DNA of 32,000 nucleotides, taken from contig JACKCC010000021.1 of the NCBI GenBank assembly GCA_020634245.1, positions 46,932-78,931 on the forward strand, read 5' to 3'. The translations under genes were made by a program, and so were the position numbers. Numbering within the stretch: the first letter of the stretch is position 1; the number at the start of each line of letters is the position of its first letter. This DNA comes from Ardenticatenaceae bacterium (GTDB lineage: Bacteria > Chloroflexota > Anaerolineae > Promineifilales > Promineifilaceae). Under the pieces are notes generated by a model. That model worked only from the letters and a program-made list of their open reading frames with translations. It was not told the origin of the DNA and made no database searches. Below are positions 1,754 through 32,000 of the stretch, in pieces.

Positions 1754-2452
1754 CTATCCTCTAGCTCTAGCTAATCTATTCTGCACGGCCGTTCCCGTCA
1801 ACTCCTTCAGCGCATCTCTGGCCACCCACTGGGCCGCTTTGCTTTCCTGCTGTTGAATACGCTCACTGACGGCGATCGCCTGCTGGTTGAGGGTCAGATT
1901 GCGCTTGCCAATCTGCCGCAGCGCCCAGTTAACGCTTTTTTTGACCATATCCCGCGCATCACCCGCTTCCTTCTCGATGAGTGGGAGAAAGGCGGTGAAG
2001 CGTTCATCCGCCGCTTTTTTGTCGCTGACTGCCAGCCGGGCCATGAGAACAAAACCGGCTCGTTTGACGTACTCTTCTGCCCGTTCGCCCCACTCGACCG
2101 CTTTTTGGTAGGCAAATGGCGTTTTCTCGAACAGGTTCATGCAGCATTGGTCGCAGATTTCCCAGTAATCAAATTCGGCCGCCCAGCTTTCCATTTGTGC
2201 TTCGCTGACCAGTTGAGGCACGTCAACCATGCTGGCCAGGATGCGCGTTTCGCGAGTGTTGTTGGCCCACAGTTGTTGCGCCAGCGCATGATTGGCCGCT
2301 TTGTCGTTGCCGCGCACTTTGCGGGCCAGTTGGCGCAGCACCGGAATTTTAATTCCATAGGCATGGTCCGGCGTGATGCCGTATTGCGCCATGCCGGCCA
2401 GTGCATCCGGGTTTCGTTCAGCTTCCAATTGCTGGAGAATTGTTTCATACAT
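1754..2452 (-). CDS. DNA alkylation repair protein (AlkD-like HEAT-repeat family)
   Basis: 232 aa ORF. The pattern YGI..PVLRQLA...LAQQLW....RE.RILA and the overall helical-repeat layout are typical of the DNA_alkylation family, recognised from memory. Confidence 0.65.
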   Translation of the reverse strand: MYETILQQLEAERNPDALAGMAQYGITPDHAYGIKIPVLRQLARKVRGNDKAANHALAQQLWANNTRETRILASMVDVPQLVSEAQMESWAAEFDYWEICDQCCMNLFEKTPFAYQKAVEWGERAEEYVKRAGFVLMARLAVSDKKAADERFTAFLPLIEKEAGDARDMVKKSVNWALRQIGKRNLTLNQQAIAVSERIQQQESKAAQWVARDALKELTGTAVQNRLARARG

Positions 2453-2467
2453 ATGTGGTGCTCTTGC

Positions 2468-2538
2468 GTAATCAAGTCATGAAGTCATATATCATGCGGC
2501 ATTCATCACGCATGACACATGACTTCATGACGGATGAC
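2468..2538. repeat. Intercistronic inverted pentamer array A (GTCAT x3-4, then ATGAC x4, period 7-8 nt)
   Basis: GTAAT 2468, GTCAT 2476 and 2484. CATGCG at 2493 pairs with CGCATG at 2509. ATGAC at 2512, 2519, 2527 and 2534. Positions 2476-2488 are the exact reverse complement of 2519-2531 (13 bp). Confidence 0.7.
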
Positions 2539-2569
2539 AAATTTCATTTTAACGACCGAGTATTACAAG

Positions 2570-3001
2570 TTACATTTCGCCTGAATCCCGAAAGTGGCGC
2601 ATTCGTCCCAGGGCCATGAACATCGCGCCAACGGCCGTTGCAATGGCAATACCAAATTTTGTCGGGTCAACGATCGGTTTGACTTCTACCCCGTTGGGGC
2701 CGATGGAAATGGCTGCTACCGGCCGGGCCAGGGTCGTTCCGCCGCCGCCGCCGCCACCGCCATAGCCGCTGGGCTGGCCGGTTTCTTCATCGCCGGGACC
2801 AAATCCGCCGCCACCGCCATACCCCGTGCCAAAACTGGCTGTCACTTCCGAGGCCGTGATGACCGTGTATTCGCCAATGGTTTGCGGTTTGCTGTAGACA
2901 ACATCAGGTTGAGTCACGTCAAACAATTTGCCCAATAGTTGGTTAGCTTTTTCCTGATTGGGAACAGATTCAATCACCAGTTTGTTCAATTCTTCGCTCA
3001 T
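2570..3001 (-). CDS. GerW/YtfJ-family (sporulation protein YtfJ-like) protein
   Basis: 143 aa with VITASEVTASFGTGYGGGGG, a Gly-rich tract, then ARPVAAISIGPNGVEVKPI, the signature layout of the Spore_YtfJ family. GGAG lies 8 nt upstream of the ATG. Confidence 0.7.
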   Translation of the reverse strand: MSEELNKLVIESVPNQEKANQLLGKLFDVTQPDVVYSKPQTIGEYTVITASEVTASFGTGYGGGGGFGPGDEETGQPSGYGGGGGGGGTTLARPVAAISIGPNGVEVKPIVDPTKFGIAIATAVGAMFMALGRMRHFRDSGEM

Positions 3002-3022
3002 GGTTTACTCCTTCTTGAGTTG

Positions 3023-3067: not shown

Positions 3068-3329
3068 TTAACAGGGTAACGGCCGTACCCACCACCGCTG
3101 CTGCCAGTACAATCATCCGTGTCATATCGGGGATGGGGATACGTTGTGAACGGCCGTTCTCCTCCACCAATACCGCCACCGGCCTGTTCCAGACAAAGCC
3201 ACCGGCGACTGCAGAACGGTTGCCCGGCAGCCGAAGCGACAACACCTGCGCCTGCGGCGTTACTGTCCGATCACCCACCGTCACCGATTGACCATCCTTA
3301 ATTTCCCACTGCCAAAATTTTCCACTCAT
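3036..3329 (-). CDS. Small hypothetical protein with C-terminal transmembrane helix
   Basis: ORF of 97-101 aa. I prefer the ATG at 3329 (MSGKFWQW), which sits 11 nt after GGAGG, over the GTG at 3341 that abuts the SD. There is a hydrophobic stretch IVLAAAVVGTAVTLLI. The last ~9 codons are read out of repeat D. No family recognised. Confidence 0.45.
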   Translation of the reverse strand: MSGKFWQWEIKDGQSVTVGDRTVTPQAQVLSLRLPGNRSAVAGGFVWNRPVAVLVEENGRSQRIPIPDMTRMIVLAAAVVGTAVTLLIKSQSDKAAK

Positions 3330-3562: not shown

Positions 3563-6034
3563 ATGTCGAAACGCATCTTAATTTTACTGACCACCTTGTT
3601 AACCGCCATCAGCCTGAACGCACAAACCAACCAACAAACCAATCAGTCCACCACCCTCCTCATCACCGAAGTTTTCTATGATGCCCCCGGTGCGGATGAA
3701 GAACGGGAATGGGTGGAAATCGCCAATGTGGGCACGGCCGTACTCTCCCTCAGTGACATCAAAATTGGCGATGAAGAGGTGCCCGGCGGCGAGGAAGGGA
3801 TGAAACGCTTCCCCGAAGGCGCGCAAATCGAACCGGGACAGGTCATCGTTGTGGCTCAGACGGCGGCTGGATTTTTTGAGTTGTACGGCCGTTACCCCGA
3901 CTACGAAATCACCAATACAAGCGCCAACGTGCCCGACATGCGCCGCTTCTCGGCCTGGGCCACCGGCGATTTTGCCCTGGGCAACGACGGCGACGAACTG
4001 CTCCTGGTCAATGGGATGCGCATCATCGACGCCCTGAGCTACGGTGACCGGACGACCATCTTCAATTCGGCCGTGTCCGGCGTGGCCAGCGGGCAAAGCA
4101 TCGAGCGCCAGCCGGCCAACTGCGACAGCGACACCAGCGCCGACTGGCAAACGCAGCCCGTGCCCACACCGGGCCAAATCAGCCTGGACGATGCCTGCGC
4201 CGCTCCCGCCGAACCAGAATGGGAACCCCTGACGCCTATCGGCGAGATTCAGGGCAGCGGCCCAGTTTCCTCTTATGTCAATGAAACCGTCACCTTTCGC
4301 GGCGTGGTCATCGGCCAGTACGAGGACATCAACACCAGCGGCGTCACCTACTACACCCTGTTCGTGCAAGATTTACCGGGCAGCGAAGACGGCGACCCGG
4401 CCACCTCGGATGGCATAGCGGTGTTTTTGGGGCGGAAACGGCCGTCCACCCCCATCGGCAGCCAAATCCGCATCACCGGCACAGTCACCGAATTCTACGA
4501 CTACACCGAAATCGACGACGCCGGGCTGGAGATTATGCTGGAAATGGCCGATGCTCCCCTGCCCGATCCCGTCGCCATCAGCCTGCCACAGGGCCGCGCG
4601 GCCCAATTGGCCTATTACGAACCGCTGGAAAGTATGCGGGTGACACTGGCAAACACGACCAACGTCACCGGGCCGACCTACAGCGGCTGCGGCTTTGCCG
4701 TCGTCGAGGGCAGCAGCGGCCTGACGCGGGTCTACCGCCGCAGTGCCGACGATTTGGCCCCGCCGGTCATCACCGTTTTGCACACCAGCGACGTAAGCTG
4801 CGGCAGCTTTCCCAACGTCAAAGTGGGCGACACAGTGACCGGCATCAGCGGCCCATTGATCTACAACTTTGACGAGTTCAAGATCGTGCAGCAGGTCACG
4901 GAAGATTTGATGGTGACGGCCGTTCCCCAACCGCCCTTCCCCGCACCGCCCACGCCAGCCGCCCACCAGTTCAGCATCGCCACCTTCAACGTCGAAAACC
5001 ATTTCGACAGCATCGACGATACCGGCAGTGTTGACGAACCCAAGCCCAGCCCTGAAGAAATCGCCGTCAAGCAGGCCAAACTGGTGGCTGCCATCAGCCA
5101 GACGCTGGGCTGCCCGACGTTGCTGGCCATCCAGGAGGTGGAAACGGCCGTTTTGCTGGAAGGTCTGGCTGAGGCTGCTGCTCCTGCCTGCGGATTTACC
5201 TACCAGGTCAGCCATCAGGAGAGCGCCGACGTGCGCGGTATTGACGTGGCCTTGTTGAGTGATCCGGGGCGGGTGGGGGTAACGGCCGTTTCCCTCCAGC
5301 AAGCCTGTACCCTCATGAACACCGGCATCAGCGACCCCGCCATCACCTGCCCCGCCGGACAGCAGCCGCTCTTTTCCCGCCCGCCGCTCCAGGTCAGCCT
5401 GGCCATCGACGGTCAGCCCTATACCATCCTGGTCAACCACTTCAAATCCAAACGCGGTGGCGAAGCGGAAACAGAATTGCGCCGCGTAGCCCAAGCCCAG
5501 CACATCGCCGATCTTGTGACCGATTTGCACGATGACAATTCCACCGCCCGTGTCATCGTCCTGGGCGATTTCAACGATTTTGAGCAGTCGCCGCCGCTGA
5601 ATTTGATGGAAGCCAACGGCCTGACCAACGTGCTGCGGCAAATCCCGGATGAGGCCCGCTACAGCTTTAATTTTGGCGGCGTGTCGCAGTTGATTGATGG
5701 CTTGTTGGTGACGGAAAATCTGGTGGAGACGGTAACGGCCGTGACCATCCAGCATACCAACGCCGATTTCCCCGACAGCCTGGGGCAGGATACCAGTCTG
5801 GCCAACCTGGCCTACAAAACAACCGACCACGATCTGCCGCTGGTAGTTTTCGATTTGTACCCGGAACTGGAACAGCCTACGCCAACGCCGGACACGGCCG
5901 TTTCCCCCACCGCCACACCCGTCAATGACAATCAGGGAGTTGACGAAAGCACATTCAGTTGGTGGGGCTGGCTGGTAGGTGGTTTATTGGTGATGGGAAC
6001 GGCTGTTATCGCCTTTTTCTTCCGTCGTAAATAA
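3563..6034 (+). CDS. Secreted ExeM/NucH-type extracellular nuclease: signal peptide, lamin-tail domain, EEP nuclease domain, C-terminal TM anchor
   Basis: N-terminal signal MSKRILILLTTLLTAISLNA. LTD-like LLITEVFYDAPGADEEREWVEIAN...GDELLLV. EEP motifs FSIATFNVENHFD, VNHFKSK, GDFND and TDHDLPLVVF. The C-terminus WWGWLVGGLLVMGTAVIAFFFRRK is a TM helix plus basic tail. Confidence 0.75.
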   Translation: MSKRILILLTTLLTAISLNAQTNQQTNQSTTLLITEVFYDAPGADEEREWVEIANVGTAVLSLSDIKIGDEEVPGGEEGMKRFPEGAQIEPGQVIVVAQTAAGFFELYGRYPDYEITNTSANVPDMRRFSAWATGDFALGNDGDELLLVNGMRIIDALSYGDRTTIFNSAVSGVASGQSIERQPANCDSDTSADWQTQPVPTPGQISLDDACAAPAEPEWEPLTPIGEIQGSGPVSSYVNETVTFRGVVIGQYEDINTSGVTYYTLFVQDLPGSEDGDPATSDGIAVFLGRKRPSTPIGSQIRITGTVTEFYDYTEIDDAGLEIMLEMADAPLPDPVAISLPQGRAAQLAYYEPLESMRVTLANTTNVTGPTYSGCGFAVVEGSSGLTRVYRRSADDLAPPVITVLHTSDVSCGSFPNVKVGDTVTGISGPLIYNFDEFKIVQQVTEDLMVTAVPQPPFPAPPTPAAHQFSIATFNVENHFDSIDDTGSVDEPKPSPEEIAVKQAKLVAAISQTLGCPTLLAIQEVETAVLLEGLAEAAAPACGFTYQVSHQESADVRGIDVALLSDPGRVGVTAVSLQQACTLMNTGISDPAITCPAGQQPLFSRPPLQVSLAIDGQPYTILVNHFKSKRGGEAETELRRVAQAQHIADLVTDLHDDNSTARVIVLGDFNDFEQSPPLNLMEANGLTNVLRQIPDEARYSFNFGGVSQLIDGLLVTENLVETVTAVTIQHTNADFPDSLGQDTSLANLAYKTTDHDLPLVVFDLYPELEQPTPTPDTAVSPTATPVNDNQGVDESTFSWWGWLVGGLLVMGTAVIAFFFRRK

Positions 6035-6084: not shown

Positions 6085-7152
6085 TTGAGGTTCCCCCGCG
6101 CTATTTTGCATCTGGATATGGATGCGTTTTATGTCAACGTTCACCGGCTAGACCACCCGGAAGACAGGGGCATTCCGCTGGCCGTGGGCGGCAAGCCCGA
6201 CCAGCGTGGTGTGGTCGCATCGGCCAGTTATGAGGCACGGCAAAAAGGGGTTAGATCGGCGATGCCTACGGCAACGGCCGTACGCCTTTGCCCCAATCTC
6301 AAACTGGTTCCGGCCAACTGGACTCGCATTCGGGAATGTTCCCGCCAGGTCATGGACATTCTGCGTCCCTACGGCCTGCTGGAACAAATCAGTGTTGATG
6401 AAGCGTACATCGATTTGAGCGGACTGGATGAACCGGAGGTTGTCGCCGCCCAAATTCGCTCCGAAGTGAAAGAGAAGACCGGATTGCCGGCCTCGGTGGG
6501 ATTGGCGACGTCGAAGCTGGTGGCCAAGGTTGCCTCTGATTTTGACAAGCCGGAAGGATTCACGATTGTCCCGCCGGACAGCGAAGCCGATTTTTTAGCC
6601 CCGCTGCCGGTGCGTGTTATTTGGGGCATCGGCCCCAAAACGGCGGAAAAACTGGCCGGGCTGGGCATTGAAACTTGTGGTCAACTGGCTCAGGCGGATT
6701 CCGATCAACTGCGGCGGTTTGGTAAACAGGCGCTGGAATTGCAAGAACGGGCGCGGGGTGTGGACGGCCGTTCCGTCCAACCCGATCATGGCCCACCGAA
6801 GAGTATCAGCCAGGAATGGACGTTTAACAGCGATATTGGGGAAACGGCCGTTTTACGGGACAAACTACGCCAGATGTGCGGCGACGTGGCCCAATCCTTG
6901 CAAAAACGAGGGCTGGTGGCTCACACCGTCACCGTCAAATTCCGTTGGTCAGATTTCACCACGTTCACTCGCCAGCGTTCGGTGGCAGTGGGTATTGATG
7001 ATGAGGCGGATATTTTTCGGCTGGCCGAGGCGATCTGGCGGGAAAATTGGCCGGAGAACCGGCCGATGCGGCTGTTGGGTGTGGGGGTGAGTAAGTTGGA
7101 GGAGGAAGGCGGGAAAGAGGGATACGGCCGTCAACTCACCTTTGATTTTTAA
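6085..7152 (+). CDS. dinB: DNA polymerase IV (Y-family translesion polymerase)
   Basis: ILHLDMDAFYVNV, GVVASASYEARQKGVRSAMP, SVDEAYIDL and the little-finger region. The track start is TTG 6055. I prefer the in-frame TTG at 6085, which lies 7 nt after AGGAG (6073-6077). Confidence 0.85.
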   Translation: MRFPRAILHLDMDAFYVNVHRLDHPEDRGIPLAVGGKPDQRGVVASASYEARQKGVRSAMPTATAVRLCPNLKLVPANWTRIRECSRQVMDILRPYGLLEQISVDEAYIDLSGLDEPEVVAAQIRSEVKEKTGLPASVGLATSKLVAKVASDFDKPEGFTIVPPDSEADFLAPLPVRVIWGIGPKTAEKLAGLGIETCGQLAQADSDQLRRFGKQALELQERARGVDGRSVQPDHGPPKSISQEWTFNSDIGETAVLRDKLRQMCGDVAQSLQKRGLVAHTVTVKFRWSDFTTFTRQRSVAVGIDDEADIFRLAEAIWRENWPENRPMRLLGVGVSKLEEEGGKEGYGRQLTFDF

Positions 7153-8635: not shown

Positions 8636-9064
8636 TTAGGAATAGTAGGTTTGCAAAATGTACAGAATGGTTTCCCCATAGGCGTTGCTGGCGGTGGCAG
8701 CGTTGAATGAGAGGGTTTCATTTTGATAGCGGATTTGGATGTGGCAACGGCCGTCTACCCACCGCAACTTTAGCTCCTTTTCCCCTTCATCCTTAAGCAG
8801 GTTTTCCAATTCCTGCCGCAGCTGACCTTCGGTAGGCATCCAGACCACTTCCGTCGTCACGATGTAATCCAGCGCCCATTCGGCCGTGCCGTGGAAGGTG
8901 ATGACCGGCCAGCCTTGCAGCAGGTCCAGATGAGCCATCATATCGGTGATGACAAAGATATGATCATCCATACCCCGATCGGGGATGGCAAAAAAGTGAT
9001 GATTGCTGGCCTTCCAGACCAGCCCGGCTTGTTTAAGGGCTTGTGCCAATTCCAGTGAAATCAT
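8636..9064 (-). CDS. Conserved hypothetical protein (142 aa)
   Basis: The track ORF runs to 9178, but the ATG at 9064 forms an ATGA overlap with the stop of the upstream DUF2332 gene (plus-strand tcat at 9061-9064). The product starts MISLELAQALKQAGLVW. No domain recognised with confidence. Confidence 0.55.
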   Translation of the reverse strand: MISLELAQALKQAGLVWKASNHHFFAIPDRGMDDHIFVITDMMAHLDLLQGWPVITFHGTAEWALDYIVTTEVVWMPTEGQLRQELENLLKDEGEKELKLRWVDGRCHIQIRYQNETLSFNAATASNAYGETILYILQTYYS

Positions 9065-22568: not shown

Positions 22569-22597
22569 AGTAATTTACCTAATTCAAACAAAAAAAG

Positions 22598-22769: not shown

Positions 22770-22824
22770 CAGGCGAATTCGCCAAATCACACAAAGCACG
22801 GTAACATTTATACATCTTAATTCT

Positions 22825-22908: not shown

Positions 22909-22954
22909 TTTTTTAGGTTTACATCAAACAAATATCCATTGTTTGGATTGAGAT

Positions 22955-23027
22955 GCCCACGTAGCTCAGCCGGCAGAGCACATTCTTGGTAAGAATGAGG
23001 TCATGGGTTCAAGTCCCATCGTGGGCT
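22955..23027 (+). tRNA. tRNA-Thr (anticodon GGU)
   Basis: Acceptor GCCCACG/CGTGGGC, anticodon stem CATTC/GAATG with loop TTGGTAA, T arm ATGGG-TTCAAGT-CCCAT. 73 nt. Confidence 0.9.
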
Positions 23028-23190
23028 TTTTGCCCCGTTTACCCTTATGATTTGCGTAGTGGGTGACGGGGTTTGTTATGATACAGGTTGATAGTTTTAT
23101 TTGTATCAAAATGGGCGGGTATTATCACAAATAATTTCCTCAGGCCTACGAATTTGATACATCCATAACATTGATTGAGGGTTTAGAAAA

Positions 23191-24393
<1,203 letters not shown>

Positions 24394-24412
24394 AAAACAA
24401 TATTTGATTAAA

Positions 24413-24449
24413 AACCTGCTGCAGATTGGCTAAAAATCTGCAGCAGGTT
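24413..24449 (+). terminator. Perfect 15-bp hairpin between tuf and rpmG (partial terminator or processing/stability element)
   Basis: AACCTGCTGCAGATT-ggctaaa-AATCTGCAGCAGGTT. The downstream tract is only GTT, so it is not a classical strong terminator. Confidence 0.4.
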
Positions 24450-24465
24450 GTTAAGGTGTTATATA

Positions 24466-24630
24466 ATGGCAAAGAAAGCAGTTCGTAATCACATTACCTT
24501 GGCTTGCACGGAGTGTAAGGAGCGTAATTATGTTACGGAAAAAAACCGGCGTAATGATACGGCTCGATTGGAATTAAATAAGTATTGCCCACGGTGCCGG
24601 CAGCACAGACTGCATCGAGAGACGCGATAG
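24466..24630 (+). CDS. rpmG: 50S ribosomal protein L33
   Basis: 54 aa [30 protein letters not shown]...[13 protein letters not shown] with a CxxC...CxxC zinc ribbon. AAGGTG lies 7 nt upstream of the ATG at 24466. The track start TTG 24448 lies inside the hairpin. Confidence 0.9.
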
Positions 24631-24640
24631 TTCGTGGTTT

Positions 24641-24713
24641 AGGGGGTTAGCTCAATTGGCAGAGCGACGGTCTCCAAAACCGTAGGCTGCGGGTTCGATT
24701 CCTGCACCCCCTG
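24641..24713 (+). tRNA. tRNA-Trp (anticodon CCA)
   Basis: Acceptor AGGGGGT/ACCCCCT, anticodon stem ACGGT/ACCGT with loop CTCCAAA, T arm GCGGG-TTCGATT-CCTGC. 73 nt. Confidence 0.9.
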
Positions 24714-24720
24714 TCAGTGT

Positions 24721-24748
24721 CTTCGGGAGGCGTAACAGCCTCCCGAAG
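24721..24748 (+). other. Perfect 11-bp hairpin directly after tRNA-Trp
   Basis: CTTCGGGAGGC-gtaaca-GCCTCCCGAAG, followed by cgtgTTTATAAT. TATAAT at 24755-24760 lies 17 nt after the loop hexamer GTAACA, so a secE-nusG promoter may overlap it. Confidence 0.4.
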
Positions 24749-24775
24749 CGTGTTTATAATCATTTGCTCCATCGT

Positions 24776-25063
24776 ATGTTACGGTGGGAGGAAAGTGCAA
24801 AAGTGACAGAATCTGGTAAGAGAACAGGCTCGGTGAAGAAAGCATCACCGGAAAAGAAACAGGTAAAGCAGCAGAATCCCATTTCTAAGTATTTTCGGGA
24901 AACACGTGGGGAGTTGCGTAAGGTGACCTGGCCATCACGGGAGGAATCCTGGCGACTGACTTATATTGTATTAGGTGTTACCCTGGCAATGTCTGCTTTT
25001 TTGTGGTTGTTTGACACACTGTTTTCAAATTCGATTCAGTTCTTGTTGGAACAGCTAATTTGA
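24776..25063 (+). CDS. secE: Preprotein translocase subunit SecE
   Basis: The conserved SecE core FFRETRGELRKVTWPSREE is followed by a single TM helix (LTYIVLGVTLAMSAFLWLF), in the canonical position before nusG. The start is ambiguous: TTG 24764, ATG 24776, or GTG 24803 lying 11 nt after GGGAGG. Confidence 0.75.
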   Translation: MLRWEESAKVTESGKRTGSVKKASPEKKQVKQQNPISKYFRETRGELRKVTWPSREESWRLTYIVLGVTLAMSAFLWLFDTLFSNSIQFLLEQLI

Positions 25064-25126
25064 TTTGAGATCATAGGATGGCTGGGAAACGGCCGTGTTC
25101 AAAACGGAACGTAAGCGAGAATTGAC

Positions 25127-25780
25127 ATGGATAATGAAATGGAAGAAATGGACCTGATGCATTTGGATGATAATGATCCATTTGCAGAAAAAGAAAAACC
25201 CCAAAAAGAAGCGTCATCAGCCCCGAAAGAGAAAAAAGACGTCTCTATTCCTGATGACGGCCGTGCTTGGTACGTGGTTCATTGTTATTCCGGTTACGAA
25301 AATAAAGTCCGTCACAGTATCGAGCAGCGCATTGAAACAATGGGCATGCAAGATAAAATCTTTGATGTTGTCGTTCCCACCGAAGAAGAAATTGAGATCA
25401 AAGATGGCAAACGTCGAACAGTTGAACGGCGCGTGTTTCCAGGTTACATCTTGGTGCAGCTGGTATTGAGTGAAGATTCCTGGTACGTCGTCCGGAACAC
25501 ACCGGGTGTTACCGGGTTCGTGGGTATGGGCAATGAACCTACACCTCTTCGTGCTGATGAAGTTGCCAAAATAATGAACCGTATGGAAGCGGAAGCGCCT
25601 AAAGTCAAATTTGACTTTCAGCTTGGCGAGAAAGTACGTATTGGTACTGGCCCATTCGCTGATTTTATTGGTACTGTTTCCGAAATCGATGCTGAAAAAG
25701 CGAAAGTTCGTGTCATGGTTTCCTTCTTTGGACGCGAAACCCCTGTTGAATTAGATTTCTTGCACGTCGAAAAAGTGTAA
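25127..25780 (+). CDS. nusG: Transcription termination/antitermination factor NusG (with ~47-aa acidic/Lys-rich N-terminal extension)
   Basis: WYVVHCYSGYENKV, FPGYILVQ, VRNTPGVTGFVG and the KOW region GEKVRIGTGPFADFIGTV. Confidence 0.92.
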   Translation: MDNEMEEMDLMHLDDNDPFAEKEKPQKEASSAPKEKKDVSIPDDGRAWYVVHCYSGYENKVRHSIEQRIETMGMQDKIFDVVVPTEEEIEIKDGKRRTVERRVFPGYILVQLVLSEDSWYVVRNTPGVTGFVGMGNEPTPLRADEVAKIMNRMEAEAPKVKFDFQLGEKVRIGTGPFADFIGTVSEIDAEKAKVRVMVSFFGRETPVELDFLHVEKV

Positions 25781-25899
25781 TCATCAAGGTAGAAAGAGGA
25801 AAGGAGAAGAAAATTTCATCCTGATCCTACTTCTTTGTGTCTTTAAACTTTGATTAGGAGGAGCCTGTAACCCAGGCGTTTGGACTCCAGGAGAGAATA

Positions 25900-26325
25900 A
25901 TGGCGAAAAAAGTAAAAGCAGTAGTAAAAATTCAAATTCAAGGCGGAAAGGCTAATCCGGCTCCCCCGGTTGGTACCGCCCTTGGTCCTCATGGTATTAA
26001 CTTGATGCAATTTTGCAAAGAGTACAATGCTAAAACATCCAGCCAGGTCGGACAGGTTGTTCCAGTAGAAGTAACCGTTTTCCAGGATGGTAGTTTTTCA
26101 TTCATCTTGAAAACCCCTCCGGCAGCAGATTTATTGAAAAAAGCGGCCAATATCAAAACCGGTTCTTCTGAATCAAATCGAGTCAAGGTCGGCAGCGTTA
26201 CTCAGGCACAGCTTAGAGAAATTGCCGAAATCAAAATGAAAGATTTGAATGCGGTAGATGTTGATGGGGCGATGAAAATTATTGCCGGTACGGCCCGTAG
26301 TATGGGGTTAACCATTTCCGATTAA
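25900..26325 (+). CDS. rplK: 50S ribosomal protein L11
   Basis: 141 aa. [43 protein letters not shown] is diagnostic. Confidence 0.95.
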
Positions 26326-26387
26326 GAAACATTCAATAGAGTGGGAGGATGTTAGAAATACATCCGTTTGCACCACGAGGAGAAAAC

Positions 26388-27089
26388 ATGCCTAAAAGAG
26401 GACGTAAATATCAAGAAGCTGCGGCTAAAGTTAACCGCGATAAATTATATACACGTGCTGAAGCTGTAAAACTGGTCAAAGAGACAGTTTATACGAAGTT
26501 TGACCCTACCGTTGAAGTACACTTTCGTTTAGGTGTTGATCCGCGCCATGCCGATCAACAGGTGCGCGATGTGGTAAATTTACCACATGGACTGGGTAAA
26601 ACAGTGCGTGTTTTGGTTTTTGCTGAAGGTGAAGATGCTACGTTGGCTCAAGATGCAGGTGCTGACATTATTGCTGATGATGAAGTGATTAAGCAGATTC
26701 AGGCAGGCTGGACAGAATTTGATGTGGCCATTGCCGTTCCTTCTATGATGGGTAAAGTTGGTCGTTTGGGCCGTGTTCTGGGTCCGCGTGGTTTGATGCC
26801 CAACCCTCGCGCCGGCACGGTTGCCCCCGGAAGTGATTTGCCTCGATTAATTGAGGAAGCAAAAGCGGGTCGTGTTGAGTTCCGTGTGGACAAGACTTCG
26901 AACGTTCACGCGCCGATTGGCAAGGCCAGCTTTTCTGAGCAACAACTGCTGGATAATCTACAAACGGTGATTGAAGCCATTAAACGTGCCCGTCCGGCAT
27001 CTGCTAAAGGTACGTATGTACGCCGTGTTGTTTTAGCTAATACGATGGGGCCTGGGATTCGCCTTGACCCAACAGAGGCAATATCGTAA
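26388..27089 (+). CDS. rplA: 50S ribosomal protein L1
   Basis: The ATG at 26388 (MPKRGRKYQEA) lies 5 nt after GAGGAG. FDPTVEVHFRLGVDPRHADQQVRD, GKVGRLGRVLGPRGLMPNP and FRVDK. The track start 26349 adds 13 unsupported codons. Confidence 0.95.
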   Translation: MPKRGRKYQEAAAKVNRDKLYTRAEAVKLVKETVYTKFDPTVEVHFRLGVDPRHADQQVRDVVNLPHGLGKTVRVLVFAEGEDATLAQDAGADIIADDEVIKQIQAGWTEFDVAIAVPSMMGKVGRLGRVLGPRGLMPNPRAGTVAPGSDLPRLIEEAKAGRVEFRVDKTSNVHAPIGKASFSEQQLLDNLQTVIEAIKRARPASAKGTYVRRVVLANTMGPGIRLDPTEAIS

Positions 27090-27404
27090 ACTATTGTGTC
27101 TGTGTGGATTAATAATCCCAAAAATTTTTAACAACAAAACAATAAAATTCTCTACTTAAGACCGTTGGTGTTGGTCGGGAAAAGATTCCAGATCAACTTA
27201 AATATTGCCAGCCGAGGTGGGGGTTCACTGTAAATTAATTGTTTCTAAATGGGCATTTTTTAATGATGTTCCTGCTTTAGAAATTATGAATCCTCATGCT
27301 GGTTGGTATGAGGATTTTTTATTTTGAAGCAACCATCAGCTCTCATCATGTTAATGATGGAGCATGATTTTGATAAATTATCACTGTTAAGGAGGTGATA
27401 CGCT
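27090..27404 (+). promoter_or_regulatory. Long structured rplJ-rplL leader (candidate L10/L12-responsive attenuator region)
   Basis: 315-nt untranslated gap in the position where L10-leader autoregulatory RNAs occur in many bacteria. It contains an intrinsic terminator (27289-27326), a second hairpin CTC-t-CATCAT/ATGATG-GAG (~27341-27366) and the perfect palindrome TGATAAATTATCA (27371-27383) next to the SD. Confidence 0.5.
27289..27326 (+). terminator. Intrinsic terminator/attenuator hairpin inside the rplJ leader
   Basis: AATCCTCAT-gctggttggt-ATGAGGATT followed by TTTTTATTTT. Confidence 0.65.
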
Positions 27405-27941
27405 TTGGCTATTTCTAAGGCACGTAAAGATGAATTGGTCGCTCAATATGGTGAACTTATCGGGCAAAGTAAGGCAATTTTTATGGCCGATTACACCGGA
27501 ATGAGTGTGAAGAGCATGGAAGCTTTGCGTCATAAGGTCCGCGAGGCAGATGGTGCTTTTCATGTTACCAAAAAGACGCTGTTGAAATACGCTCTGGAAC
27601 AAGCGGACAGGCCGGTACCAGAGGAGTTGATGGATGGTCAGCTTGCGGCCGGTTTTGCTATGGACCAGGTACCGACTTTGGCAAAGGCATTGGTTGATTT
27701 CGCAAAAAGCGAAGAAAAACTAACGCTTAGGGGCGGTATTTATGGTAATAATGTCCTTTCATATGATCAGGTGAAGGCACTGGCTGAACTGCCGTCGTTG
27801 CCGGAACTGCGTTCACAGCTTCTTGGTTTGATAAATACCCCGGCTCAGAATATTGTTTCTGTTGTGGCGGGTGGTATTCGTCAGGTTATTAATGTAATTG
27901 ATGCATACGCTAAAAGTGAAGAGTCTGCGGAAGCGGCATAA
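27405..27941 (+). CDS. rplJ: 50S ribosomal protein L10
   Basis: 178 aa. The TTG start lies 5 nt after AAGGAGGTGAT. KDELVAQY...FMADYTGMSVKSMEALR is the L10 family pattern. Confidence 0.93.
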   Translation: MAISKARKDELVAQYGELIGQSKAIFMADYTGMSVKSMEALRHKVREADGAFHVTKKTLLKYALEQADRPVPEELMDGQLAAGFAMDQVPTLAKALVDFAKSEEKLTLRGGIYGNNVLSYDQVKALAELPSLPELRSQLLGLINTPAQNIVSVVAGGIRQVINVIDAYAKSEESAEAA

Positions 27942-28037
27942 GCGGCGTAGGCGTTGGTAAACAGATTGATTCAGTTGGGGATTTTCTCTAACAATAGAAA
28001 AGATTAGGAAATAATATAATCTTGGAGGATTATTAAG

Positions 28038-28421
28038 ATGGCCGATTTAGAAAAATTAGTGGAAGAACTGAGCAGCTTGAATTTGATGGAAGCTGCTGAA
28101 TTGACAAAAATGCTGGAAGAGAAGTGGGGTGTTAGCGCTGCTGCTCCGATGGCTATGGGTATGATGCCGATGGGCGGTATGCCTGGCGCGGCTGTAGAAG
28201 AAGTGGAAGAGCAGACTGAGTTTGACGTGGTCTTGAAGGATATTGGTCCGAAGAAGATTAACGTTATTAAGGAAGTTCGTGCTTTGACTGGTCTGGGTCT
28301 GAAGGAAGCGAAGGAAGTTGTGGATGGCTTGGGTACAGTGATGGAAGCAGTTGGCAAGGAAGCTGCCCAAGAAGCGAAAGCCAAGCTGGAAGAAGCCGGC
28401 GCTGTTGTCGAAGTCAAATAA
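28038..28421 (+). CDS. rplL: 50S ribosomal protein L7/L12
   Basis: 127 aa. An Ala/Met-rich hinge, [24 protein letters not shown] and a C-terminal [10 protein letters not shown]. Confidence 0.95.
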
Positions 28422-28461
28422 CGATTTTCTTAATCGTTTGCAGTATGGTTGCTGTGAAAAG

Positions 28462-28497
28462 GGCTGGTTCCAAAGGGAACTGGCCTTTTTTGCTTTT
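28462..28497 (+). terminator. Rho-independent terminator after rplL
   Basis: GGCTGGTTCC-aaag-GGAACTGGCC (10-bp stem with two G-U pairs) followed by TTTTTTGCTTTT. Confidence 0.7.
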
Positions 28498-28529
28498 ACG
28501 GCTTTTTTTTATTGAAGGTAGGGTTTGTT

Positions 28530-29201
28530 ATGGTTGAATTGGTTTTGGCTTCTCAGTCGCCAAGGCGGCGTGAGTTGATTACGCTGTTAGGTTATCCTGT
28601 TCGGGCGGTGAGTGCTGATGTGGATGAAAGTTTGGTAGATGAGCCTGATCCGGCGGTTAATGTGGTGGGCACGGCGCGGTTGAAAGCTGTAAAAATCGCC
28701 AAACAGTGGCAGCGTTTGAATGTTGATGGTGGTGTGGTTGTTGTGGCGGCGGATACGACAGTGGCGTTGGGGGATGAGATGCTGGGCAAGCCGATCGATG
28801 CAGCAGATGCCCGGCGCATGTTACGATCTCTGAGGGGGCGCCCGCATAAAGTGCATACGGGGGTGGTTTTGATGGCGCTGGATTCGGGCCGTGAGGTGAG
28901 TGGTGTGAACACGGCCGTTGTCACCATGCGTGATTATTCTGATGCTGAAATTGAAGCCTATGTTGCTTCGGGGAACCCGATGGATAAAGCGGGCGCTTAT
29001 GCGATTCAACATCCCACATTTCGGCCGGTGGCCCGTTTGGATGGCTGTTTTACCGGGGTGATGGGCCTATCGGTGTGTCATTTGTTGCAGTTGTTTGCGC
29101 AGTTGGGTTTGGCGATGCAGGCGGATTTAACGGCCGTTGCCGCTGCCCACCAACATTTCTCTTGTCAATTGCTAGATGAAATAATCGGTCGTTCCCGTTA
29201 A
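28530..29201 (+). CDS. maf: Maf-family nucleoside triphosphate pyrophosphatase
   Basis: LVLASQSPRRRELI, AADTTVALGDEMLGKP, RGRPHKVHTGV and DKAGAYAIQ. I prefer the ATG at 28530 over the track TTG at 28512. Confidence 0.85.
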   Translation: MVELVLASQSPRRRELITLLGYPVRAVSADVDESLVDEPDPAVNVVGTARLKAVKIAKQWQRLNVDGGVVVVAADTTVALGDEMLGKPIDAADARRMLRSLRGRPHKVHTGVVLMALDSGREVSGVNTAVVTMRDYSDAEIEAYVASGNPMDKAGAYAIQHPTFRPVARLDGCFTGVMGLSVCHLLQLFAQLGLAMQADLTAVAAAHQHFSCQLLDEIIGRSR

Positions 29202-29390: not shown

Positions 29391-30125
29391 ATGGTGATGA
29401 ACGAAAAACTTCAACAAGCAATTTTAGCAGCACGTAATGGACAAGAAACAGAAGCCCAAATGTTATTGACCCAAGTTCTCAAAGAAAACCCCGATGAAAC
29501 CCAGGCCTGGTTTTTACTTAGCACATTAGTCGATTCTGAATCGAAAAAAGCGGCTTATTTAGGCAAAGTGTTGACACTTGAACCTGAGCATCAAATGGCT
29601 CAAAAGATGCTGGCTCGTTTGCAAAGAAGGGAAACAGTTGAAACCGAAGTTGAAGTCGAGGAAATGATTTCTGATGCTGCTGTCGAAGAAGATGAAGCCC
29701 CGGCAGCGCCGGTAGTAGTTTCTCAGGACACATCTGATTTTTTGGCGCAGCAAAAAGGCGATACGCTGCCAGCCTGGTTGGTTGAAGAGGAGGGTTTGGA
29801 GGTAACTGAAGAAACGGCCGTGCCTGAGGTGACCGCAGAACAAGAAACTGCAACTGACTCTGACATGGTGATTCCTGATTGGCTGCAAGATGAAGTGCCT
29901 GAATCCTGGTCAAAAGAAGCGCCAGCCGAGGAAACAGAACTGGTCATTGACGATTTGCCCGTTGCAAAAACCAAGATTGCTCCACCATCTAAATCTAAAT
30001 CGGTTGCCGGTAAAGGTAAGCAAAAACAAAGATCATTTCTGACCGGAATTTTGTACGCGTTGATAGTTGTTGCCGTTTTTGTCGTTATCGCCATGATTTA
30101 TTTGGCATGGAATACTTTTTTCTAA
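29391..30125 (+). CDS. Hypothetical protein: N-terminal TPR-like helix pair, acidic low-complexity linker, C-terminal TM anchor
   Basis: The TPR-like segment is GQETEAQMLLTQVLKENPDETQAWFLLSTLV...AAYLGKVLTLEPEH. The linker is E/V/T-rich. The C-terminal segment is ILYALIVVAVFVVIAMIYLAW. Confidence 0.5.
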   Translation: MVMNEKLQQAILAARNGQETEAQMLLTQVLKENPDETQAWFLLSTLVDSESKKAAYLGKVLTLEPEHQMAQKMLARLQRRETVETEVEVEEMISDAAVEEDEAPAAPVVVSQDTSDFLAQQKGDTLPAWLVEEEGLEVTEETAVPEVTAEQETATDSDMVIPDWLQDEVPESWSKEAPAEETELVIDDLPVAKTKIAPPSKSKSVAGKGKQKQRSFLTGILYALIVVAVFVVIAMIYLAWNTFF

Positions 30126-30216
30126 ACTTTTCCGGTTGTCCTGCCAAGGTTGATCGGTACTAATTGGTAGTTGTACATGTCTTGCTCTAACGTCTGTTTG
30201 TGTATATAGTCTGCCT

Positions 30217-31140
30217 ATGGAAACCCACGAGCTTATCGAAGCTTCGCTACAAACTGATCAAGGCCGTATCCGTGACCATAATGAAGATTTTGTGACTTTT
30301 TGGGAGCCACATGATAAAGCTTCAGAAGCACAAAACGGGTGGCTTTATATTGTTGCTGATGGCGTGGGTGGGGCTGATGCTGGTGAAGTTGCCAGTCAGT
30401 ATGCTAGCGAGCGTGTGATTGAGCATTATCTCAATGATAATTTAGACCTGGGTTATGGTGAGCGTTTGTGGCGAGCGATGCAAGCTGCCAATACGGATTT
30501 ACGCCAGATGGTGGCAGAACGCGGCGATGACAGCCGGATGGCAACGACGATGGTTGCTCTTATTTTCCAGGGTTTGCAGGTTTTCATTGGTAATGTTGGA
30601 GATAGTCGGGGGTATCATTGGCGTAACGGCCGTATCCGGCAAATCACCAAAGACCAAAGCTTGGTTGCCAAATTGGTTGAAGAAGGTGCCATCACGGAAG
30701 AAGAAGCCTTCAACCATCCCCGCAAAAATGTCATTCTGTACAGCCTGGGCTCCGAAAAAGAACCTAAAATCGATATTTTTGAAGAAACAGCCGAACCAGG
30801 TGACATCTTCCTGCTGTGTTCCGACGGCTTGACCCGTCATGTACATGACGAAGAAATCCAGGAAGTATTGACCCATCAAGAACCACTTCGCGCCAGCCGC
30901 ATTCTCATCGATCTGGCTAACGAACGCGGCGGTGAAGATAACATTAGCGTAGCAGTTTTACGTTACGATCATCAGGCATCTGTTAAACTACCCCCGTCAC
31001 TGGTTGCTTTTTCTGAAAACGAAATTTTAACTGGAACATCCAAAAAAACGGCCCGGCGCCGGATGCTGTTTTACACGATCCTTCTTTCACTCGTGCAGAC
31101 AATCCTCATCATCCTAATTTGGGCACTACTTCAGGCCTGA
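30217..31140 (+). CDS. PP2C-family Ser/Thr protein phosphatase with C-terminal TM anchor
   Basis: TDQGRIRDHNEDF, YIVADGVGGADAGEVAS, GDSRGY, LCSDGL and GGEDNISVAVL. The C-terminal hydrophobic segment is MLFYTILLSLVQTILIILIWALL. Confidence 0.88.
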   Translation: METHELIEASLQTDQGRIRDHNEDFVTFWEPHDKASEAQNGWLYIVADGVGGADAGEVASQYASERVIEHYLNDNLDLGYGERLWRAMQAANTDLRQMVAERGDDSRMATTMVALIFQGLQVFIGNVGDSRGYHWRNGRIRQITKDQSLVAKLVEEGAITEEEAFNHPRKNVILYSLGSEKEPKIDIFEETAEPGDIFLLCSDGLTRHVHDEEIQEVLTHQEPLRASRILIDLANERGGEDNISVAVLRYDHQASVKLPPSLVAFSENEILTGTSKKTARRRMLFYTILLSLVQTILIILIWALLQA

Positions 31141-31168
31141 TGGGGTTCCGGTACATTACGGAGGCAAC

Positions 31169-32000
31169 ATGAATAGCAAATTACGAATCACCCCCCTGGG
31201 TGGCTTGGGCGAGATCGGCAAAAACATGACCGTCTTTGAATACGAAGACGAAATTATCATCGTTGATGCCGGGGTGATGTTCCCTGAAAATGACATGTTG
31301 GGGATCGATCTAATCATTCCCGATTACAATTATTTGATGGACAAAACCGATAAGGTAAAAGCCATCTTGATCACTCATGGTCATGAGGACCACATTGGGG
31401 CTTTGCCTCATTTGATGCGCCACATTGAAGCGCCCATTTATGCCACCCCTCTTACAGCCGGTTTGATTGATGTAAAAATGCGCCAGGCCAAACTGGCCAA
31501 TGATGTCGAGTTAATCATTTTTGAGGCCGACGATGTACTGCAAATCGGTCAATTCCAGGTGGAACCGTTCCATGTGGCCCACAGTATTCCCGATTGCGTA
31601 GGTTTTGGCATCACGACTCCGGTTGGACTGGTGGTGCATACCGGTGATTACAAATTTGATCACACGCCGACCGATAATTGGCCGCCTGATTTTGCCAAGC
31701 TGGCTGAATTTTCAGAGCGTGGTGTGCTGTGTTTGCTGGCCGACAGTACCAACGCCGACCGGCCTGGTTGGACGCCATCGGAAAAAGTGGTGGAAGAGGC
31801 GTTTGACAAGCTGTTTCGCGAGGCAAAGGGGCGGATCATTGTGGCTACGTTTGCCTCATTGATTTCGCGGATTCAACAGGTGGCGGATATGGCGCAGCGG
31901 TACGGCCGTAAACTGGCCATCACCGGTCGCTCTATGCGTGACAACACCAAAATCGCCCGCAAACTGGGCTATCTGGACGTCCCCGACGACCTGCTGATCG
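31169..32000 (+). CDS. rnj: Ribonuclease J, N-terminal 277 codons (continues off the right edge)
   Basis: Own translation from ATG 31169, which lies 5 nt after GGAGG. LRITPLGGLGEIGKNMTVFEY, the metallo-beta-lactamase motif ITHGHEDHIGALP, HSIPD and VHTGDYKFDHTP. It is not in the ORF track because it is truncated. Confidence 0.9.
   Translation, partial: MNSKLRITPLGGLGEIGKNMTVFEYEDEIIIVDAGVMFPENDMLGIDLIIPDYNYLMDKTDKVKAILITHGHEDHIGALPHLMRHIEAPIYATPLTAGLIDVKMRQAKLANDVELIIFEADDVLQIGQFQVEPFHVAHSIPDCVGFGITTPVGLVVHTGDYKFDHTPTDNWPPDFAKLAEFSERGVLCLLADSTNADRPGWTPSEKVVEEAFDKLFREAKGRIIVATFASLISRIQQVADMAQRYGRKLAITGRSMRDNTKIARKLGYLDVPDDLLI

Follow-up and report, generated by a model that had tools for sequence, protein, structure and literature searches.

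A HIP1-like palindromic octamer with a CGGCCG core in Promineifilaceae of the Chloroflexota

The octamer and the genes that carry it

The stretch of DNA analyzed here (the window; 32,000 nucleotides of contig JACKCC010000021.1, assembly GCA_020634245.1, from an Ardenticatenaceae bacterium of the family Promineifilaceae) holds ordinary chromosomal genes. These include a lon fragment, genes for an AlkD-like protein and an ExeM/NucH-family nuclease, dinB, transporters, a thiolase gene, ilvE, a histidine kinase gene, lgt, a tRNA-tuf-secE-nusG-rplKAJL cluster, maf and a PP2C phosphatase gene. Dispersed among them are 50 exact copies of one palindromic octamer, ACGGCCGT, corresponding to 1,563 per Mb. 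This octamer very probably is a genuine member of the class of highly iterated palindromes (HIPs), until now represented by cyanobacterial HIP1, and as such an element that acts at the DNA level and extends across the genome and the clade.

An earlier note on this DNA had listed the 50 copies and described them as a roughly hundred-fold excess with about one copy per 480 bp between 1.8 and 22.5 kb. All coordinates were confirmed, and both estimates hold: 100 dinucleotide-preserving shuffles yield 0.45 copies (sd 0.66, max 2), which gives an observed/expected ratio of 111, and the mean spacing between positions 1785 and 22500 is 493 bp. At a window G+C content of 52.0%, ACGGCCGT leads all 8-mers in frequency, followed by overlaps of itself, AACGGCCG (28 copies) and CGGCCGTT (23 copies). 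HIP1 itself, GCGATCGC, occurs once. The note had furthermore counted about 15 near-copies that deviate only at an outer base; this class is real, but it comprises 12 copies (seven deviating at position 1, five at position 8), and another 13 copies differ from ACGGCCGT at a single inner base.

Open reading frames (ORFs) contain 47 of the 50 sites, in three codon phases. Phase 0 encodes Thr-Ala-Val (TAV; ACG GCC GTn) and accounts for 28 assignments, phase 1 encodes [Asn/Asp/His/Tyr]-Gly-Arg (nAC GGC CGT) and accounts for 17, and phase 2 encodes Arg-Pro and accounts for 4; the assignments exceed the ORF sites because two sites in overlapping ORFs count twice. The note had considered that codon and dipeptide usage, or a longer mobile repeat, could undo its reading. 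In 300 synonymous-codon shuffles that preserved every protein sequence and the window's own codon usage, the ORFs were left with 4.96 +/- 2.0 copies (max 12), compared to the 46 that they actually hold, so that the excess withstands codon and peptide correction. A repeat search of the window retrieved no longer repeat that holds the copies, only octamer-seeded families of 18-37 nt with 62-89% identity. The sites, their genes (with strand) and their phases are as follows.

1785..1792, AlkD-like gene (-): phase 0, Thr-Ala-Val
2631..2638, ORF 2570-3001 (-): phase 0, TAV
3079..3086, ORF 3036-3341 (-): phase 0, TAV; full 16-nt form GGTAACGGCCGTACCC
3150..3157, ORF 3036-3341 (-): phase 1, Asn-Gly-Arg
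3734..3741, ExeM/NucH-family nuclease gene (+): phase 0, TAV
3885..3892, ExeM/NucH nuclease gene: phase 1, Tyr-Gly-Arg
4438..4445, ExeM/NucH nuclease gene: phase 2, Arg-Pro
4916..4923, ExeM/NucH nuclease gene: phase 0, TAV
5144..5151, ExeM/NucH nuclease gene: phase 0, TAV
5282..5289, ExeM/NucH nuclease gene: phase 0, TAV; full 16-nt form GGTAACGGCCGTTTCC
5735..5742, ExeM/NucH nuclease gene: phase 0, TAV
5894..5901, ExeM/NucH nuclease gene: phase 0, TAV
6274..6281, DinB (Pol IV) gene (+): phase 0, TAV
6764..6771, DinB gene: phase 1, Asp-Gly-Arg
6844..6851, DinB gene: phase 0, TAV
7124..7131, DinB gene: phase 1, Tyr-Gly-Arg
8747..8754, ORF 8636-9178 (-): phase 1, Asp-Gly-Arg
9116..9123, DUF2332 gene (-): phase 0, TAV; phase 1 in the overlapping ORF
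9380..9387, DUF2332 gene: phase 0, TAV
10063..10070, DUF2332 gene: phase 1, Asn-Gly-Arg
10493..10500, thiolase gene (-): phase 1, Asn-Gly-Arg; same column in 24/26 species
12002..12009, MFS transporter gene (-): phase 2, Arg-Pro; full 16-nt form GGATACGGCCGTTTCC
12744..12751, MFS transporter gene: phase 1, Tyr-Gly-Arg
13753..13760, ORF 13124-13771 (-): phase 2, Arg-Pro
13898..13905, ilvE (-): phase 1, Tyr-Gly-Arg; 35/37 HIP-rich species that keep Tyr-Gly-Arg
14748..14755, ilvE (-): phase 0, TAV; same column in 42/43 HIP-rich species
15756..15763, histidine kinase gene (-): phase 0, TAV
16212..16219, histidine kinase gene: phase 0, TAV
16554..16561, histidine kinase gene: phase 0, TAV
17210..17217, histidine kinase gene: phase 1, Tyr-Gly-Arg
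17841..17848, histidine kinase gene: phase 0, TAV
18201..18208, histidine kinase gene: phase 0, TAV
18662..18669, intergenic, between the histidine kinase gene and lgt
19024..19031, lgt (+): phase 2, Arg-Pro
19221..19228, lgt: phase 1, Tyr-Gly-Arg
19439..19446, lgt: phase 0, TAV; within the overlap with the CN-hydrolase ORF
20763..20770, ORF 20499-21434 (+): phase 0, TAV; 17/19 species; 16-nt form GGAAACGGCCGTAACC
21007..21014, ORF 20499-21434: phase 1, Asn-Gly-Arg; same column in 19/19 species
21609..21616, TAT-signal ORF 21495-22568 (+): phase 0, TAV; full 16-nt form GGTTACGGCCGTTGCC
21819..21826, ORF 21495-22568: phase 0, TAV
22087..22094, ORF 21495-22568: phase 1, Asn-Gly-Arg
22137..22144, ORF 21495-22568: phase 0, TAV
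22500..22507, ORF 21495-22568: phase 0, TAV
25089..25096, intergenic, between secE and nusG
25257..25264, nusG (+): phase 1, Asp-Gly-Arg
28911..28918, maf (+): phase 0, TAV
29130..29137, maf: phase 0, TAV
29814..29821, TPR ORF 29391-30125 (+): phase 0, TAV
30626..30633, PP2C phosphatase gene (+): phase 1, Asn-Gly-Arg
31902..31909, no ORF assigned; near the window edge

Further features that concern the octamer are one site-poor stretch and the outer-base one-off copies.

22508..28910 (+), site-poor stretch: tRNA-Thr/Tyr/Thr, tuf, tRNA-Trp, secE, nusG, rplK, rplA, rplJ, rplL
1394..1491, position-8 one-offs in the lon fragment: ACGGCCGC at 1394, ACGGCCGA at 1426, ACGGCCGG at 1484
4067..4074, outer-base one-off: TCGGCCGT
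Other outer-base one-offs, starting at 7753, 8880, 9182, 11064, 14814, 17720, 18156 and 18978

The site-poor stretch, a single region whose genes are highly conserved and taken as highly expressed, has two copies of ACGGCCGT in 6.4 kb versus about 2 per kb elsewhere. HIP1 abundance is anti-correlated with expression (PMC5861425), and the scarcity of ACGGCCGT in this one tuf-rpl stretch may be a parallel. The lon fragment (1-1520, minus strand), which encodes the N-terminal and AAA+ part of a Lon protease and is cut by the window edge, contains no exact ACGGCCGT and has its three position-8 one-offs within 100 nt. The maximum among the window genes, eight sites, is found in the ExeM/NucH-family gene. 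This gene for an extracellular nuclease lies directly upstream of dinB (3563-7152 for the pair), with the AlkD-like DNA glycosylase gene nearby; no functional link between this arrangement and the element is proposed.

Relatives, metagenomes and phages

In a collection of genomes at species level, every relative of the IlvE encoded in the window belongs to Chloroflexota, except for two weak gammaproteobacterial matches (38% identity). The Chloroflexota relatives are labeled Promineifilaceae, Ardenticatenaceae, Ca. Leptofilum or Anaerolineae, with a best match of 93% identity; NCBI taxonomy places Promineifilaceae within Ardenticatenia/Promineifilales. An exact-sequence look-up of three proteins of the window retrieved no record. 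The loci around these genes span at most 32 kb each, with about 20 kb read per genome, and 42 of them together with the window form the HIP-rich set (43 loci, 717,961 nt) to which the pooled figures refer. Across this set, at G+C contents of 43-59%, ACGGCCGT is present at 11-24 copies per 10 kb and ranks as the top 8-mer or second behind its own overlap AACGGCCG. The pooled 1,261 copies amount to 1 per 569 bp or 1,756 per Mb, with observed/expected ratios of 86, 96, 51 and 26 under Markov models of orders 0-3; higher orders converge to 1 because ACGGCCGT itself dominates its sub-word counts. About 90% of the pooled sites are located in ORFs, at a density of 1.83 per kb in genes vs 1.24 per kb in intergenic DNA. 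The spacing is slightly more even than random, with a coefficient of variation of 0.89 and 54 gaps longer than 1.5 kb where 89 are expected.

The sites furthermore recur at the same codon positions across about 40 species, while synonymous sites are otherwise free to vary. In ilvE, the Thr-Ala-Val column holds the octamer in 42 of 43 HIP-rich species and the Tyr-Gly-Arg column in 35 of 43, that is, in 35 of the 37 that keep this tripeptide. Tyr-Gly-Arg is conserved family-wide, and element-free species spell it in various ways, among them TAT GGT CGG, TAC GGC CGC and TAT GGG CGT. Only species that carry the element are thus tied to one synonymous spelling. Among 74 motif positions in 12 ortholog sets, 32 are common to at least 60% of species and 36 to fewer than 20%, which shows a mixture of deep retention and of gain or loss in particular lineages. 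Single-base losses at conserved sites fall on outer positions in 15 of 27 cases, and 7 of the 12 inner losses are changes of C2 to T, in numbers that are small and not phylogenetically independent.

In most of the remaining loci of the family, CGGCCG is the top or second palindromic hexamer, with observed/expected ratios of 2.3-9.9 where listed; it is absent from one locus (L026). Its ratio in the two gammaproteobacterial control loci, estimated by base composition, is about 0.85. The force that maintains the palindrome changes its specificity between lineages, and the outer bases of the motif follow several states (L numbers designate loci).

C..G (CCGGCCGG): L050, L067, L028, L045
G..C, the NotI site (GCGGCCGC): L061, L063, L008, in each of which it is the top palindromic octamer
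T..A (TCGGCCGA): L066, L060
No outer-base preference: L042
No element at all: L026

The 12-kb locus without outer-base preference (L042, JBFMFT010000069.1) has 82 CGGCCG, an observed/expected ratio of about 10, and represents a hexamer-only version of the element. A more drastic replacement is seen in a 21-kb Promineifilaceae locus (L072, OZ244996.1), which has only five GGCC (observed/expected 0.04) and carries 41 copies of TGCCGGCA in place of ACGGCCGT, at equal density. Permissive contexts of this second palindrome are occupied in 4/4, 13/15 and 21/28 cases, a near-saturation equal to that of ACGGCCGT. The GGCC purge suggests a GGCC-cutting restriction system.

Since all related loci share the ilvE neighborhood, metagenomes were also scanned, with the 16-nt extended form of the octamer as query. 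Of the 120 loci returned, 35 were dense and together held 390 sites over 188 kb, one every 483 bp; little besides the seeded copy was present in the others. Only one of the 35 resembles the ilvE-region loci or the window, and weakly so (68% over 530 nt); the element is therefore genome-wide in these organisms. The densest sizeable locus (L217, Ga0116151_10001610) has 47 copies of ACGGCCGT in 12.5 kb at 65% G+C, far above the range of the named relatives, and given this locus the element may reach beyond the sampled clade.

A scan of viral contigs with the same 16-nt form returned 120 loci, 41 of which have at least 8 octamers per 10 kb. The carriers include true phages: on IMG/VR contigs with up to 30 ACGGCCGT per 10 kb, sites lie inside genes for the large terminase (L144, L180), portal (L180), endolysin (L141) and minor tail protein (L189), and, on L075, inside small-terminase, DnaC-like and replication-initiator genes. 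A set of 32 dense viral loci has one octamer every 559 bp and a 6.4-fold excess of Thr-Ala-Val, with 224 out of 246 such tripeptides octamer-encoded. The proximal GG..A extension described below is present at viral sites, with a weaker distal skew. That phages enrich the octamer argues both against a restriction target and against a purely host-architectural role.

Genes for methyltransferases, Vsr and MutH were sought across host, metagenome and viral loci (about 2.9 Mb) by motif regular expressions, by blastp with an approximate E. coli Vsr sequence, and by phmmer with five methyltransferase queries and that Vsr. The methyltransferases encountered in HIP-dense DNA are exclusively phage-borne or mobile (L190, L163, L186). 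The genes concerned, at L190:7119-7952, L190:9850-10545, L163:1586-2482 and L186:1252-2517, encode N6/N4-type enzymes and, on L190, also a C5-cytosine methyltransferase. The latter adjoins RecT and a D5-N primase, and comparison with the PDB gave no clue to its specificity.

Codon contexts, recognized unit and flanks

The effect of the octamer on coding sequences is most apparent for Thr-Ala-Val, which occurs 593 times in the HIP-rich set against 89.5 expected (6.6-fold), compared with a ratio of 1.08 for the reverse tripeptide Val-Ala-Thr. In HIP-poor relatives, Thr-Ala-Val reaches 0.68 of expectation. Specifically, 571 of the 593 (96%) are encoded by the octamer, versus 14.6% predicted from codon usage. 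Asn-, Asp- and Tyr-Gly-Arg are similarly enriched 3-5.5-fold, with Asn-Gly-Arg at the upper end (5.5-fold), and about 90-95% octamer-encoded. Occupancy reaches 406/444 (91%) for [NDHY]-Gly-Arg contexts and 167/212 (79%) for Arg-Pro contexts, vs 0/25 permissive contexts in lineages without the element. The force acts at the DNA level, and the protein sequence follows. It operates on the whole palindrome, fixes it in 80-100% of permissive contexts, alters proteins and affects both host and phage DNA.

These data also decide against an artifact, in which the usage of codons, dipeptides or amino acids would generate the octamer in passing, or in which the copies would belong to a longer mobile repeat of the REP (repetitive extragenic palindrome) or MITE (miniature inverted-repeat transposable element) type. 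It is true that most genic sites fall within a few peptide contexts (94% in the window, 90% in the pooled loci) and that GCC and GGC, component codons of the octamer, are common. The chance that this accounts for the element is nevertheless negligible: a usage by-product is ruled out by the synonymous shuffle, the 96% vs 14.6% octamer encoding and the intergenic enrichment, and an origin in peptide usage by the fact that Thr-Ala-Val is enriched in HIP-rich lineages only and that the conserved Tyr-Gly-Arg varies its codons elsewhere. The absence of a long repeat refutes the mobile alternative.

Deviating copies in the pooled loci indicate what is recognized. One-offs at outer bases are enriched, with observed/expected ratios of 2.4-4.5 (2.4-fold for GCGGCCGT, 4.5-fold for TCGGCCGT), with the exception of C at position 1 (CCGGCCGT), which is depleted (0.51); inner one-offs are all depleted (0.24-0.91). 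Where the peptide blocks a full site, sub-words that lack the core are unenriched (GGCCGT 0.106 vs 0.097, GCCGT 0.42 vs 0.48, ACGGC 0.257 vs 0.251), and ACGGCCG is enriched (0.40 vs 0.146). The unit is therefore the full double-stranded palindrome with its CGGCCG core, and recognition of a half-site, in the single-stranded manner of Chi, is ruled out.

The octamer is embedded in a weak palindromic extension, GGnA-ACGGCCGT-TnCC, with symmetrized frequencies of 0.50 for G at -4, 0.44 for G at -3 and 0.51 for A at -1. Beyond it lies a polar skew of 20-30 nt, in which the 5' flank is G-rich and C-poor on each strand and the 3' flank C-rich. Within 3-9 nt of the site the GC skew amounts to +0.25 to +0.46, between 10 and 18 nt to about +0.2 and between 19 and 30 nt to about +0.1; little of it is left by 30-60 nt, and further out it stands at about +0.03. 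It is visible at synonymous third positions, in all three phases and at intergenic sites, and it recurs in the unrelated metagenome loci once the seeded sites are removed. The flanks are mirror-symmetric and share a compositional likeness only, with no common sequence. The skew may correspond to a large asymmetric footprint per half-site or to the mutational trace of short-patch synthesis that begins at the site.

A distal skew is absent around the TGCCGGCA, CCGGCCGG and GCGGCCGC sites of sister lineages and, further out than positions -1 to -4, at the 182 HIP1 sites of plasmid alpha of Nostoc PCC 7120 that were compared, which does not bear out polar flanks as a general property of HIPs. A hairpin or cruciform element was likewise rejected: the flanking arms show no complementarity or covariation beyond compositional expectation, and the folding energy is -11.19 kcal/mol for native sites, compared to -11.00 with chimeric and -11.88 with random flanks.

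Known systems, candidate mechanisms and further observations

The earlier note had proposed a HIP1-like element with a different, CGGCCG-containing core, and the features of HIPs that could be compared support this: the octamer shares rank as top word, frequency, dispersion, codon independence, outer one-offs, extension, positional conservation and lineage-wise replacement. It looks like a second, independent case of the HIP1 phenomenon, in Chloroflexota. Both elements are G+C-rich palindromic octamers with a 6-bp core plus outer bases, present as single dispersed copies mostly in genes, with a palindromic extension, positional conservation and an unexplained mechanism. Their densities are similar, with 500-2500 copies per Mb and 15-300-fold over-representation for HIP1, GCGATCGC (PMC4390886, PMC5861425), compared to about 1,560-1,760 per Mb and 26-96-fold for ACGGCCGT, and the one-off variants of HIP1 likewise concentrate at outer bases (Elhai, PMC4390886). 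HIP1 is also reported to be distributed with a periodicity of 10-90 kb; in the loci of up to 32 kb analyzed here, spacing was measured at short range. By sequence and by phylum, however, ACGGCCGT is not HIP1 proper: the cyanobacterial element has a GATC/CGATCG core, the Chloroflexota element a CGGCCG core, and Dam-type methylation cannot be involved in the latter because it contains no GATC. HIP1 has the cognate methyltransferases DmtA and DmtC, whereas no counterpart for ACGGCCGT was identified in the loci searched. In turn, polar flanks of 20-30 nt, near-saturation of codon contexts and carriage by phages at full density are seen with ACGGCCGT; the Nostoc HIP1 sites lack the first, and no report of the other two was found for HIP1.

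Replacement of one palindrome by another, lineage by lineage, often at outer bases only and at similar density, is also known for the alternate HIPs of cyanobacteria (PMC4390886, PMC5861425), namely TCGATCGA, GGGATCCC, CAGGCCTG, GGCGCC, rCCGGy and GCsGC. In contrast to these, the Chloroflexota variants occur within one family, and none coincides in sequence with a cyanobacterial one, although CAGGCCTG of Synechococcus PCC 6312 is also GGCC-centered.

Other classes of abundant short sequences fit less well. The DNA uptake sequences of Neisseria (DUS) and the uptake signal sequences of Pasteurellaceae (USS) occur about once per kb, mostly within genes, distort peptides, are rarer in conserved genes and spread by molecular drive. 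They are, however, asymmetric 9-12-mers, which sets them apart from a strict palindrome with unenriched half-sites. Chi-type hotspots are asymmetric and co-oriented with replication, unlike a palindrome that has no orientation and mirror-symmetric flanks. REP sequences, bacterial interspersed mosaic elements (BIMEs) and MITEs are likewise abundant short palindromic elements, but they are longer, intergenic, hairpin-forming and mobile, in contrast to an octamer that lies in ORFs in about 90% of cases, without arm covariation or extra folding.

The CGGCCG core is that of the type II sites of EagI (CGGCCG) and NotI (GCGGCCGC), and NotI shows that 8-bp recognition on this core exists. Such restriction sites are avoided in genomes and phages, whereas ACGGCCGT is massively enriched in both, and we know of no enzyme with ACGGCCGT specificity. 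Dam/MutH (GATC) and Dcm/Vsr (CCWGG) offer another precedent, in which palindromic methylation sites are read by restriction-fold nicking enzymes in repair. Vsr repair biases sequence evolution toward its site. The enrichment of GATC and CCWGG is modest and without codon-context saturation, compared to 50-100-fold for ACGGCCGT. Elhai's model of HIPs was built on this analogy (PMC4390886).

The reading that we tentatively favor, with somewhat less than an even chance of being correct, is drive by modification and repair. According to this reading, the palindrome is probably the recognition site of a resident pair of sequence-specific DNA enzymes. One would be an orphan methyltransferase of the EagI/NotI (CGGCCG) specificity family; the other would act in repair or recombination, recognizing the modified site and resolving mismatches or heteroduplexes in or beside it toward the strand with the full site. 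Mutation would thereby acquire a direction toward the site, as in the molecular drive or ratchet that Elhai put forward for HIP1, and would continue until almost every octamer-capable codon context is filled, dragging the amino-acid sequence along where the protein tolerates it. Sites would stay at the same positions over very long times, and phage DNA replicating in these cells would acquire them as well. A change in enzyme specificity, in turn, would lead to rewriting of the outer bases or the entire motif in that lineage. The modified sites may additionally serve the cell in strand discrimination during mismatch repair, in recombination or as a self mark, as the HIP1 transformation data suggest by comparison. 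A quantitative consideration favors drive: if about 10,000 sites per genome shared a collective function, selection per site should be too weak for more than 90% occupancy, whereas such occupancy arises naturally from a conversion bias.

Several observations weigh against drive by modification and repair. Transitions are the least depleted of the inner one-offs (0.81, 0.64, 0.91), and the specific depletion of T-containing one-offs that classical very-short-patch repair of the Dcm/Vsr type predicts is not seen. Elhai's G-meC rule does not fit the A-C outer step, and the polar flank skew is not predicted by a simple ratchet. Methyltransferase, Vsr and MutH-like genes are absent from the window, from about 1.2 Mb of related host loci and from 0.19 Mb of HIP-dense metagenome loci, an absence that means little for the hosts because only about 20 kb per genome were covered. 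The positional conservation of HIP1 was taken as evidence for selection rather than replenishment (Xu et al., PMC5861425); the conservation data presented here cannot separate the two on their own, and the equal density across motif states together with the slightly regular spacing could reflect selection for density.

Selection is central to two rival explanations. The octamer could be a selected signal for DNA uptake, self-recognition or Chi-like recombination or nuclease protection, which builds up by biased uptake or recombination and is mimicked by phages as a host mark; we consider this unlikely but worth serious attention. Proteome distortion and scarcity in conserved genes, as Findlay and Redfield reportedly described in 2009, also accompany uptake sequences and count in its favor. 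In Synechococcus PCC 7002, methylated HIP1 boosts recombination as well as transformation, the latter up to more than 100-fold, and has been likened to Chi (bioRxiv 10.1101/2024.09.10.611283); a preprint of 2026 puts HIP1 forward as an uptake sequence of the whole phylum. Phage structural genes with ACGGCCGT at host density fit a benefit to any cellular DNA, and the G-richness on the 5' side of the site is reminiscent of Chi motifs, which are likewise rich in G. Known uptake sequences and Chi are, however, asymmetric and read on one strand, whereas here the full palindrome is required, half-sites are unenriched and the orientation bias that Chi function uses is lacking. To our knowledge, the near-total saturation of permissive codon contexts also exceeds anything known for uptake sequences. 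It is improbable, furthermore, that the octamer is a binding site for a chromosome-organizing protein, involved in nucleoid structuring, SMC (structural maintenance of chromosomes) loading or segregation and kept by purifying selection at each site, a role that Xu, Lawrence and Durand proposed for HIP1. Such a role would agree with the identical site positions across about 40 species amid varying synonymous neighbors, with the rather even spacing and with the rebuilding of another palindrome at the same density in the GGCC-losing lineage, and the extended polar flank could be the footprint of a large protein. Against it, phage genomes, packaging and tail genes included, carry the octamer at full density, and a nucleoid function of the host would offer phages no obvious benefit; a collective function needs no 80-100% occupancy and should provide weak selection per site; and some relatives, L026 among them, do without an element of this kind.

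A third rival, which is very improbable, regards the element as a consequence of a full restriction-modification system with CGGCCG or ACGGCCGT as its cleavage target, acting for example through protected-site selection or post-segregational pressure. The core is a classical type II target of the EagI/NotI family, and in L072 the loss of the element coincides with a GGCC purge typical of restriction avoidance. Restriction targets are normally avoided in hosts and especially in phages, however, and the phages here are enriched; HIP1 has moreover been shown to lie outside any restriction system in PCC 7002 (bioRxiv 10.1101/2024.09.10.611283). A bolder proposal, which we regard as distinctly unlikely, goes beyond a methyltransferase and attributes the octamer with its polar 20-30-nt flanks to a genome-maintenance machine not yet described, one that combines site-directed nicking and conversion and writes its own palindrome into host and phage DNA alike until every permissive position is taken. 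The strand-symmetric skew would then stem from short-patch resynthesis by this machine, and lineages would have exchanged its specificity module (A..T, C..G, G..C, T..A, TGCCGGCA). If true, HIPs would be general, convergently evolved, self-propagating DNA marks and no cyanobacterial oddity.

Full-text literature searches, which leave most subscription journals outside their coverage so that an earlier mention is possible, found no description of the ACGGCCGT element, in agreement with the impression of the earlier note that the octamer is undescribed. Iterated palindromes in the literature searched were cyanobacterial, or the term was used for something unrelated, and a paper on sul4 in wastewater reports methylation motifs, with none for this family (PMC12772301). 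New to the HIP class are the phylum, the core, the polar flanks, the near-saturation of codon contexts and the carriage by phages, the last three of which were not found in reports on HIP1. HIP1 has remained unexplained in cyanobacteria for about 30 years, and an independent HIP in Chloroflexota shows the phenomenon to be convergent and general. The family furthermore offers a natural experiment, with about 70 sequenced species and at least six motif states (four outer-base variants, loss, and TGCCGGCA with GGCC purge), in which phylogenetic profiling of methyltransferase, nuclease and repair genes against motif state could reveal the machinery. Many of the genomes derive from Nanopore data, from which methylation is directly readable.

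With its context occupancy and 6-fold tripeptide distortion, the octamer is among the strongest known cases of a DNA-level process overriding codon and protein sequence, and it must be allowed for in analyses of codon usage, selection and horizontal transfer in these genomes. Promineifilaceae are abundant filamentous bacteria in wastewater treatment; octamer density provides a simple marker for contig binning and could link phages to their Promineifilaceae hosts.

The window also contains features that are unrelated to these questions. A 23-nt inverted repeat (2476-2531; 91% complementary, 10-nt spacer) between the AlkD-like gene and ORF 2570-3001 may be a terminator or operator. As called, the lgt ORF runs about 150 nt into the next ORF, which has a CN-hydrolase domain (19423-19579), and the true start of the latter is probably downstream of the called one. 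The protein of ORF 20499-21434 matched no family; within this ORF, positions 20755-21319 comprise three tandem units at 267-nt spacing, corresponding to 89-aa repeats.

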